Shown here in pieces: positions 1 through 478 of a stretch of DNA of 43,172 nucleotides. The position numbers and the translations under genes are program-made. The notes below the pieces were generated by a model. That model did no database searches. It worked only from the letters and a program-made list of their open reading frames with translations, and was not told where the DNA came from. This stretch comes from a virus. Taxonomy: Duplodnaviria > Heunggongvirae > Uroviricota > Caudoviricetes. Location: IMG/VR virus record IMGVR_UViG_2675903609_000006; one strand, given 5' to 3'. Positions within the stretch are counted from its first letter, which is position 1; every line of letters starts with the position of its first letter.

Positions 1-418
1 TCAGATGGCTGCTTAAAAAAAGAACAAATGGTAGTGTCCGCTATTGCCAGTACACCTCAGGGTGTTTGTCCACACCAAACCTGCCTACCGAAGCGACGGA
101 ACAAAAACAGCAGCGGTAAGGAAGATGAGAACCGACAGCAACAAGGCATGGAAGGGAGCGTTAAAGCGGGCAGGCATTAGCAACTTCCGCTTCCATGACC
201 TGAGGCATACCTGGGCAAGCTGGCTGGTTCAGTCCGGTGTCTCTCTTCTTGCGCTTAAAGAGATGGGAGGATGGGAAACTCTCGAAATGGTTCAAAGATA
301 CGCCCACCTTTCAGCCGGGCATCTCACCGAGCACGCGAGCAAAATCGATGCGATTATAAGTCGCAATGGCACAAATACGGCACAAGAGGAGAACGTAGTT
401 TACTTAAATGCGAGGTAA
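1..418 (+). pseudogene. Tyrosine integrase 3' remnant (partial at window edge, apparently frameshifted)
   Basis: ORF 44-418 carries the integrase C-terminal motif [16 protein letters not shown]...GGW...RYAH, paralogous to the int at 39081-40244. The upstream homology continues in a different frame (codons from position 3 read RWLLKKRTNG), and the 44-418 frame has stops at 14-16 and 32-34. Confidence 0.6.
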
Positions 419-432
419 CTTATTGATTTAAA

Positions 433-478
433 TGGTGCCGATAATAGGAGTCGAACCTACGACCTTCGCATTACGAAT
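433..478. repeat. Distal attachment-site core: 46-bp direct repeat identical to the 3' end of tRNA-Thr
   Basis: 433-478 is identical to 40259-40304 (the 3' 46 nt of the tRNA gene, beginning at the CCA end). Identity is lost at 479. Confidence 0.8.

Follow-up and report, generated by a model that had tools for sequence, protein, structure and literature searches.

The window analyzed here, a stretch of 43,172 nt, carries a prophage integrated at the tRNA gene thrW. The prophage is bounded by an exact 48-nt direct repeat (positions 431 to 478 and 40257 to 40304), in which 46 nt of each copy correspond to the 3' end of tRNA-Thr(CGT); the expected number of such exact repeats arising by chance in 43 kb is ~1e-20. 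Over a slightly longer interval, positions 415 to 478 and 40241 to 40304 match across 64 nt with a single mismatch, at nt 430. The initial annotation had described identical 46-bp copies of the tRNA-Thr 3' end at 433 to 478 and 40259 to 40304, and these were borne out, with the exact identity reaching 48 nt. The only tRNA gene that ARAGORN identified in the window is tRNA-Thr(CGT) itself, on the minus strand at 40259 to 40334, and beyond it lie proA and proB, as in E. coli.

The DNA between the repeats is 99.9% identical to Shigella phage SfIV (NC_022749/KC814930) when aligned end to end over the whole record, and positions 415 to 10180 match positions 23261 to 13495 of that record at 99.96%. 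The window contains two att cores only. The distal core, which we term attL after the usage of the Shigella papers, has the length of the published 46-bp SfIV attP, a sequence that has been called identical to those of SfI and SfV (PMC3851460). With tRNA-derived repeats at both ends, an intact tRNA gene at one of them, and SfIV DNA in between, the locus has the att duplication of an integrated prophage, and the left end of the window is the ordinary distal junction between an SfIV prophage, inserted at thrW, and the chromosome of Shigella flexneri. The features of the locus are as follows.

1 to 59, plus strand: right terminal 59 nt of IS600 (IS3 family), ending ...CCTCA; 100% identical to nt 1206 to 1264 of the 1264-bp copy in S. 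flexneri SFBU1023 (locus L012)
60 to 418, plus strand: int2, 3' remnant of an SfX/HK75-type, thrW-specific tyrosine integrase gene; 118 codons plus stop, truncated on its 5' side by IS600
419 to 432, plus strand: 14-nt spacer from the int2 stop codon to the att core; same as the PD7 spacer and the published SfX attP flank
433 to 478, minus strand: distal att core, a displaced 46-nt thrW 3' end; exact copy of 40259 to 40304
479 to 679, plus strand: att phage arm and gtrA upstream region, where SfIV DNA starts (alignment to SfIV)
680 to 1042, plus strand: gtrA (open reading frame; SfIV annotation GtrA; Pfam GtrA_DPMS_TM on the identical protein)
1039 to 1953, plus strand: gtrB (open reading frame; SfIV annotation GtrB; Pfam Glycos_transf_2 on the identical protein)
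1955 to 3268, plus strand: gtrIV (open reading frame; SfIV annotation serotype-specific glucosyltransferase; Pfam YfdI_N on the identical protein)
3269 to 38853, no strand assigned: SfIV-type prophage body (99.9% to NC_022749/KC814930; SfIV annotation)
38854 to 39204, plus strand: probable xis (excisionase), overlapping the int start (open reading frame; corresponds to SfIVp29 "excisionase")
39081 to 40244, plus strand: intact SfIV int, 387 aa (open reading frame; SfIVp28; full PF00589)
40259 to 40334, minus strand: intact thrW, tRNA-Thr(CGT) (ARAGORN); its 3' 46 nt (40259 to 40304) form the proximal att core

The gtrA-gtrB-gtrIV genes (680 to 3268), which form the O-antigen glucosylation operon, lie just inside the distal repeat, whereas xis and int lie just inside the tRNA-proximal repeat, with a 14-nt spacer between int and the core. 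The mechanical open reading frame of xis starts at 38770, with the ATG at 38854 being the likely start, and SfIV Int matches positions 1 to 171 of the 172-position PF00589 profile (E=6.5e-48). The prophage body encodes Mu-like tail and baseplate, head, terminase, lysis, regulation, and replication functions, together with an ISEhe3-like insertion sequence and a full IS1. Compared with SfIV as described by Jakhetia et al. (2013; PMC3851460), which it resembles in sequence, in the 46-bp att at both ends, and in the organization of its ends from int to gtrA, the prophage shows no material difference; what the window contributes is the chromosomal setting beyond the repeats.

Both insertion sequences are also part of the published phage. 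The ISEhe3-like element, of the IS3 family (orfA/orfB), lies at ~3940 to 5090 between gtrIV and the tail-fiber assembly genes and is shared with the SfIV reference (SfIVp23/24) and most of the related loci; the IS1 at 27549 to 28316 is complete (768 bp), is 98.7% identical to K-12 IS1B, and appears in the SfIV genome as SfIVp47 "transposase." Three runs of N interrupt the window, one in the prophage tail/baseplate region (10181 to 10339) and two in proA/proB (41423 to 41707 and 42029 to 42168). The first of these had the appearance of a 159-nt divergence from SfIV and proved to be an N mask, in which 159 N stand where the SfIV reference has 98 nt. Within the counterpart of SfIV gp41 "primosomal protein," positions 32687 to 32761 hold five overlapping 15-bp units (CAGATTTTGACGGGT-like, period 15), which look like origin iterons in a replication-initiator gene, as in lambda O.

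An integrase remnant beyond the distal core

The second integrase sequence, int2, is read in frame 2 up to a stop codon at 416 to 418; it shares its strand with SfIV int (39081 to 40244), and in both genes 14 nt separate the stop codon from the core. The int2 remnant matches only positions 101 to 170 of the 172-position PF00589 profile (E=5e-19), whereas its intact relatives cover positions 2 to 170 within 384 aa. The HDLRH and RYAH motifs are kept in its translation, and the upstream catalytic Arg region is absent. The stub thus lacks the complete PF00589, arm-binding, and core-binding domains of a functional gene, its 5' part having been replaced by IS600. The initial annotation had placed the 3' end of a second, paralogous integrase gene in the same orientation just outside the distal repeat, and the PF00589 match at 60 to 418 confirms this.

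The 357 nt that survive match, at 100% nucleotide identity, the gene for an intact 384-aa integrase in E. coli PD7, which is carried there by a lambdoid/P22-like prophage directly at thrW. Identities to related phages are 99.3% for mEpX2, 99.0% for HK75 and HK542, and 98.8% for SfX int (intX), mEp213, and mEp043, and the SfX/HK75-type set as a whole (SfX, HK75, HK542, HK446, mEpX2, mEp213, and mEp043) spans 98.3 to 99.3% over the stub length; the thrW-adjacent integrase of E. coli 536 matches at 99.3%. The assignment to the SfX/HK75-type thrW integrases (98.3 to 100%) applies to the 3' 31% of the gene only. In the records of mEpX2, HK542, HK446, mEp213, and mEp043, the adjacent site is annotated as thrW/ptwF-like.

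The attachment sequences show the same affinity. The int2 3' end abuts a core identical to thrW (stop at 416 to 418, core at 433 to 478), with the spacing seen in PD7 and in the SfX attP. Moreover, the SfX attP flank published in the supplement of PMC3306764 equals the reverse complement of window positions 401 to 478, allowing for one extra T that is shown in every att copy in the text of that supplement. The 14-nt spacer at 419 to 432 differs by one base, nt 430, from the int-side spacer of SfIV, and its source is the older element's attP. The stub therefore shares with the int/attP module of SfX, HK75, HK542, HK446, mEpX2, mEp213, and mEp043 its sequence, stop codon, 14-nt spacer, and thrW-derived core; it differs from that module in keeping only the last 118 of ~384 codons, in having neither xis, N-terminal domains, nor phage body, and in ending on its 5' side at an IS600 end. 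Podoviruses, siphoviruses, and PAI III536 all carry this int/att module, and for that reason the stub cannot reveal what the lost element was, whether phage or island.

The stub is more distant from the integrase of the resident prophage, to which it is 61% identical over 111 residues and ~68 to 71% identical in nucleotides (71 to 73% in the catalytic region). The similarity noted earlier upstream of both repeats, extending into the ends of the two int genes, is real: 17 of the 18 nt next to the core match between the two int ends, including the TAA stop, and the C-terminal tails beyond them diverge. The stub is a paralogue of SfIV int rather than a copy of it.

The IS600 junction and the DNA to its left

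Positions 1 to 62 have thousands of matches annotated as "IS3-like element IS600 family transposase" in E. coli genomes, and in the SFBU1023 copy of IS600 both ends begin TGAGGT...; the remainder of the element in our strain lies outside the window. Alignment to intact alleles showed that integrase homology starts exactly at nt 60, so that the break falls between nt 59 and that position, near codon 267 of int2. When positions 1 to 480 were compared by megablast with 5,426 complete E. coli genomes, the integrase matches all started at nt 60, and none of these genomes had a match spanning the junction (coverage of the 480-nt query, ≤88%). The presence of IS600 at this point explains why the draft contigs of related strains break here, as in L010, whose contig begins at window nt 63. 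At its other end, upstream of proB, the window closes inside another IS1, of which it includes the first 54 nt (43119 to 43172); together with the IS600 end at 1 to 59, this suggests a draft contig whose two ends fall in repeated insertion sequence copies.

These alignments bear on the state of int2, which had been described as a decayed gene whose frame is broken within the first ~45 nt, with a nucleotide alignment of the two integrases proposed as the means of locating the frameshift. We translated the three forward frames of positions 1 to 419. Frame 2 shows integrase homology only from ~nt 47, with stops upstream, as a frameshift would predict; given that positions 1 to 59 are IS600, however, the stops at nt 14 to 16 and 32 to 34 lie in IS600 DNA, and a frameshift was ruled out. 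The remaining 357 nt, identical to the PD7 allele, contain none either. The "decay" of int2 thus amounts to truncation by IS600, with no point decay.

Given that the window stops inside IS600, the DNA further left was inferred from other strains with the identical junction. The complete genome CP026792.1 (L004), which carries gtrIV, is identical to the window over positions 1 to 700. Its left flank consists of a 5'-truncated IS600 that abuts, and has been cut by, a complete IS629; beyond IS629 lies chromosomal backbone (adrA [yaiC], proC, yaiI, aroL, yaiA, aroM, and ppnP). An exact search of genome contigs with the 37-nt IS600/int junction (window 45 to 81) also identified the complete chromosomes of S. 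flexneri SFBU1023 and "E. coli" ECMA0423 (L012 and L013, respectively), which differ from the window by one SNP in positions 1 to 478. Both carry a different gtr phage, with 93% identity through gtrA/gtrB and a 486-aa GtrC. In both, IS600 is complete, and it is flanked on the left by an unrelated insertion sequence-like scrap and an inverted IS629, not by int.

The scrap in SFBU1023 (~980 to 1151 of the locus) is a stretch of ~170 nt between the inverted IS629 and the left end of IS600. Its reverse strand holds an open reading frame that starts MNNNNTLYVGLDVHKESITVA... and resembles the N terminus of an IS110-family transposase. The locus in this strain is an insertion sequence graveyard, and its layout varies among S. 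flexneri lineages.

The three complete genomes with the same junction have, to its left, neither the 5' part of int nor prophage genes nor a third copy of att. A 32-nt core pattern, which covers degenerate, mismatched copies less than exhaustively, detected a single core in each of the fetched loci and none left of the junction within 8 kb (L004) or 2.3 kb (L012 and L013). The three att copies and two element bodies of a tandem prophage array are therefore not what this locus holds, there being two cores in the window and one per locus elsewhere. In the lineages that share the junction, the stub is all that is left of the older element.

The initial annotation had read the locus as tandem occupancy of thrW, with an older element displaced by the present prophage, and had named the lack of a further att repeat or element as the outcome that would speak against it. 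That outcome is what the same-junction genomes show. The part of the claim that stands is the historical one, namely, that an earlier element once occupied thrW; the part that does not is the older element itself, since neither its body nor a third att is left in related genomes.

Proposed order of events at thrW

Taken together, these observations make it very probable (roughly 0.93) that the left end of the window holds the IS600-truncated int2 stub of an earlier thrW element beside an SfIV prophage, rather than a frameshifted integrase or a live tandem. The geometry of the stub supports this reading, being that expected for an earlier thrW element displaced distally by SfIV integration. From the identities, the position of the junction, and the conservation of the arrangement elsewhere, the following history, including the type of element lost, can be proposed. 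A phage or island with an SfX/HK75-type integrase would have integrated into thrW, its attP supplying the new tRNA 3' end, so that its int would have come to lie 14 nt from the intact thrW. IS600 would then have landed in, or recombined at, approximately codon 267 of this older int, and rearrangements mediated by insertion sequences may have deleted the 5' part of int along with everything else in the element and neighboring backbone, leaving IS600 and IS629 abutting adrA (yaiC). Finally, a crossover mediated by SfIV Int within the 46-bp core of the still intact thrW would have regenerated the tRNA, placing SfIV int next to thrW and the old core and int stub beyond gtrA. To excise, SfIV would require no recombination proteins other than its own Int and Xis, with the two cores as their sites.

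Since the IS600/int junction is shared beneath SfIV (L004) and beneath a different gtr phage (L012 and L013), the truncation appears to have preceded the present prophages. This relative timing is indicated by the shared junction, and replacement of one prophage by another through flanking homologies could confound it. Lacking the arm-binding domain, the core-binding domain, and the first half of the catalytic domain, the stub is recombination incompetent.

We considered whether a second, largely complete older element could nevertheless stand in tandem to the left of the window, with its integrase frameshifted near nt 45. Intact arrays with this integrase type do exist elsewhere (L007 and E. 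coli C1). With nt 1 to 59 being IS600 rather than integrase in another frame, the frameshift already refuted, and the three same-junction complete genomes devoid of an int 5' part, element body, or third att, we regard this arrangement as very improbable. A simple IS600 insertion, in which int would merely be interrupted and its 5' part and the element would continue directly beyond the insertion sequence in the present strain, is just as improbable. It draws on the fact that the window ends within IS600 and on the precedent of a cloned SfX int interrupted by IS2 (U82084), which shows that insertion sequence hits in this gene occur; however, the full IS600 of L012 and L013 is flanked on the left by other insertion sequence DNA rather than int, that of L004 is cut by IS629 next to adrA, and a junction common to strains that differ by one SNP implies shared ancestry of the arrangement.

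The least probable reading, which we consider remote in the extreme, is that the stub has been kept because it is used, as an expressed C-terminal integrase fragment (open reading frame 44 to 418, or 125 to 418 from an ATG) that modulates the Int of incoming thrW phages: a 124-codon open frame does cross the IS600/int junction, a 97-aa product is called in L004, and the stub has no point mutations relative to intact alleles, but such 100% identity is equally expected of a young neutral remnant, the fragment has no DNA-binding domains and only half of a catalytic domain, and strain 036, which is without the present stub, was nevertheless lysogenized by SfX and SfI. A promoter scan of positions 1 to 1100 found no sigma-70-like site on the plus strand that could express the stub. 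Without DNA-binding domains, half of the catalytic domain, or an upstream promoter-like site on the plus strand, the stub is best regarded as inert, and it is highly doubtful that the IS600-int fusion frame at 44 to 418 is expressed and that its product hinders or assists SfX/HK75-type recombination at thrW. If it did, the fusion product would bias which serotype-converting phages lysogenize the present S. flexneri lineage.

Much of this neighborhood is already published, including the 46-bp att, the occurrence in serotype 4a strains of an int gene and att site upstream of gtrA, the proA-thrW-int-IS600-IS629-yaiC order, and tandem integration at thrW. The integrase remnant had been correctly sighted and wrongly diagnosed, and it is ordinary and already known. 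Its significance beyond annotation hygiene is slight: in annotation, the stub belongs among the pseudogenes, as one truncated by IS600, and labels such as frameshifted integrase or second prophage would be wrong. The junction of IS600 with int can serve as a lineage marker, being common to S. flexneri strains with different serotype-converting phages and absent from the 5,426 complete E. coli genomes. It records at least two uses of the thrW site, and the locus shows how insertion sequence expansion in Shigella erases older elements.

Other occupants of thrW

thrW is a recognized hotspot for island integration (PMC7545054), and the loci that we compared differ in what lies distal to the prophage. 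In L002, L003, L008, and L011, the distal neighbor of the gtrIV-type prophage is E. coli backbone (yagP-paoDCBA), whereas in L004 and L010 it is the IS600-truncated stub. L007 has an intact 384-aa SfX/HK75-type integrase (3620 to 4774) with P22-like early genes next to att-gtrA-gtrB-gtrIV, and L006 has a P4-like integrase (7124 to 8314) with a Psu/primase satellite as the distal neighbor; both loci are true tandem arrays at thrW. In E. coli C1, the intact integrase is separated from thrW by a different island. Occupancy of thrW by elements in tandem is thus commonplace. PAI III536 (E. coli 536, the strain whose thrW-adjacent integrase is 99.3% identical to the stub), other E. coli thrW islands, and CP4-6 resemble the present locus in their use of the thrW integration hotspot, but those islands are large and have intact integrases. 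CP4-6/intF of K-12 was considered as a homologous arrangement and ruled out, because the 466-aa IntF is encoded at the island's far end and the geometry differs.

The closest published parallel is the experimental tandem lysogeny of SfX followed by SfI at thrW, in which the newcomer enters the tRNA-proximal att (Sun et al. 2011, PMC3306764). In the resulting strain, 036_1d, the older int likewise lies just beyond the gtrA and att core of the newer phage; there, however, SfX is complete and three att copies are present, in contrast to the 357-nt int stub seen here. The proA-yaiC locus map in the same paper depicts a putative int, IS600, IS629, and yaiC, and earlier work, cited as reference 8 in PMC3851460, is credited there with an int gene and attP upstream of gtrA in a serotype 4a strain.

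The "putative phage int" next to thrW/attB in the serotype Y strain 036 was examined as a possible match to the present stub. Its 3' end is of the SfI/SfV/SfIV type (...GTNDV*) and not of the SfX type (PMC3306764 supplement), which rules out identity and leaves it a partial precedent only. S. flexneri lineages thus differ in the int stub that they have kept at thrW, and the remnant in strain 036 suggests that some serotype Y strains once carried a prophage from which gtr and most other parts have been lost.
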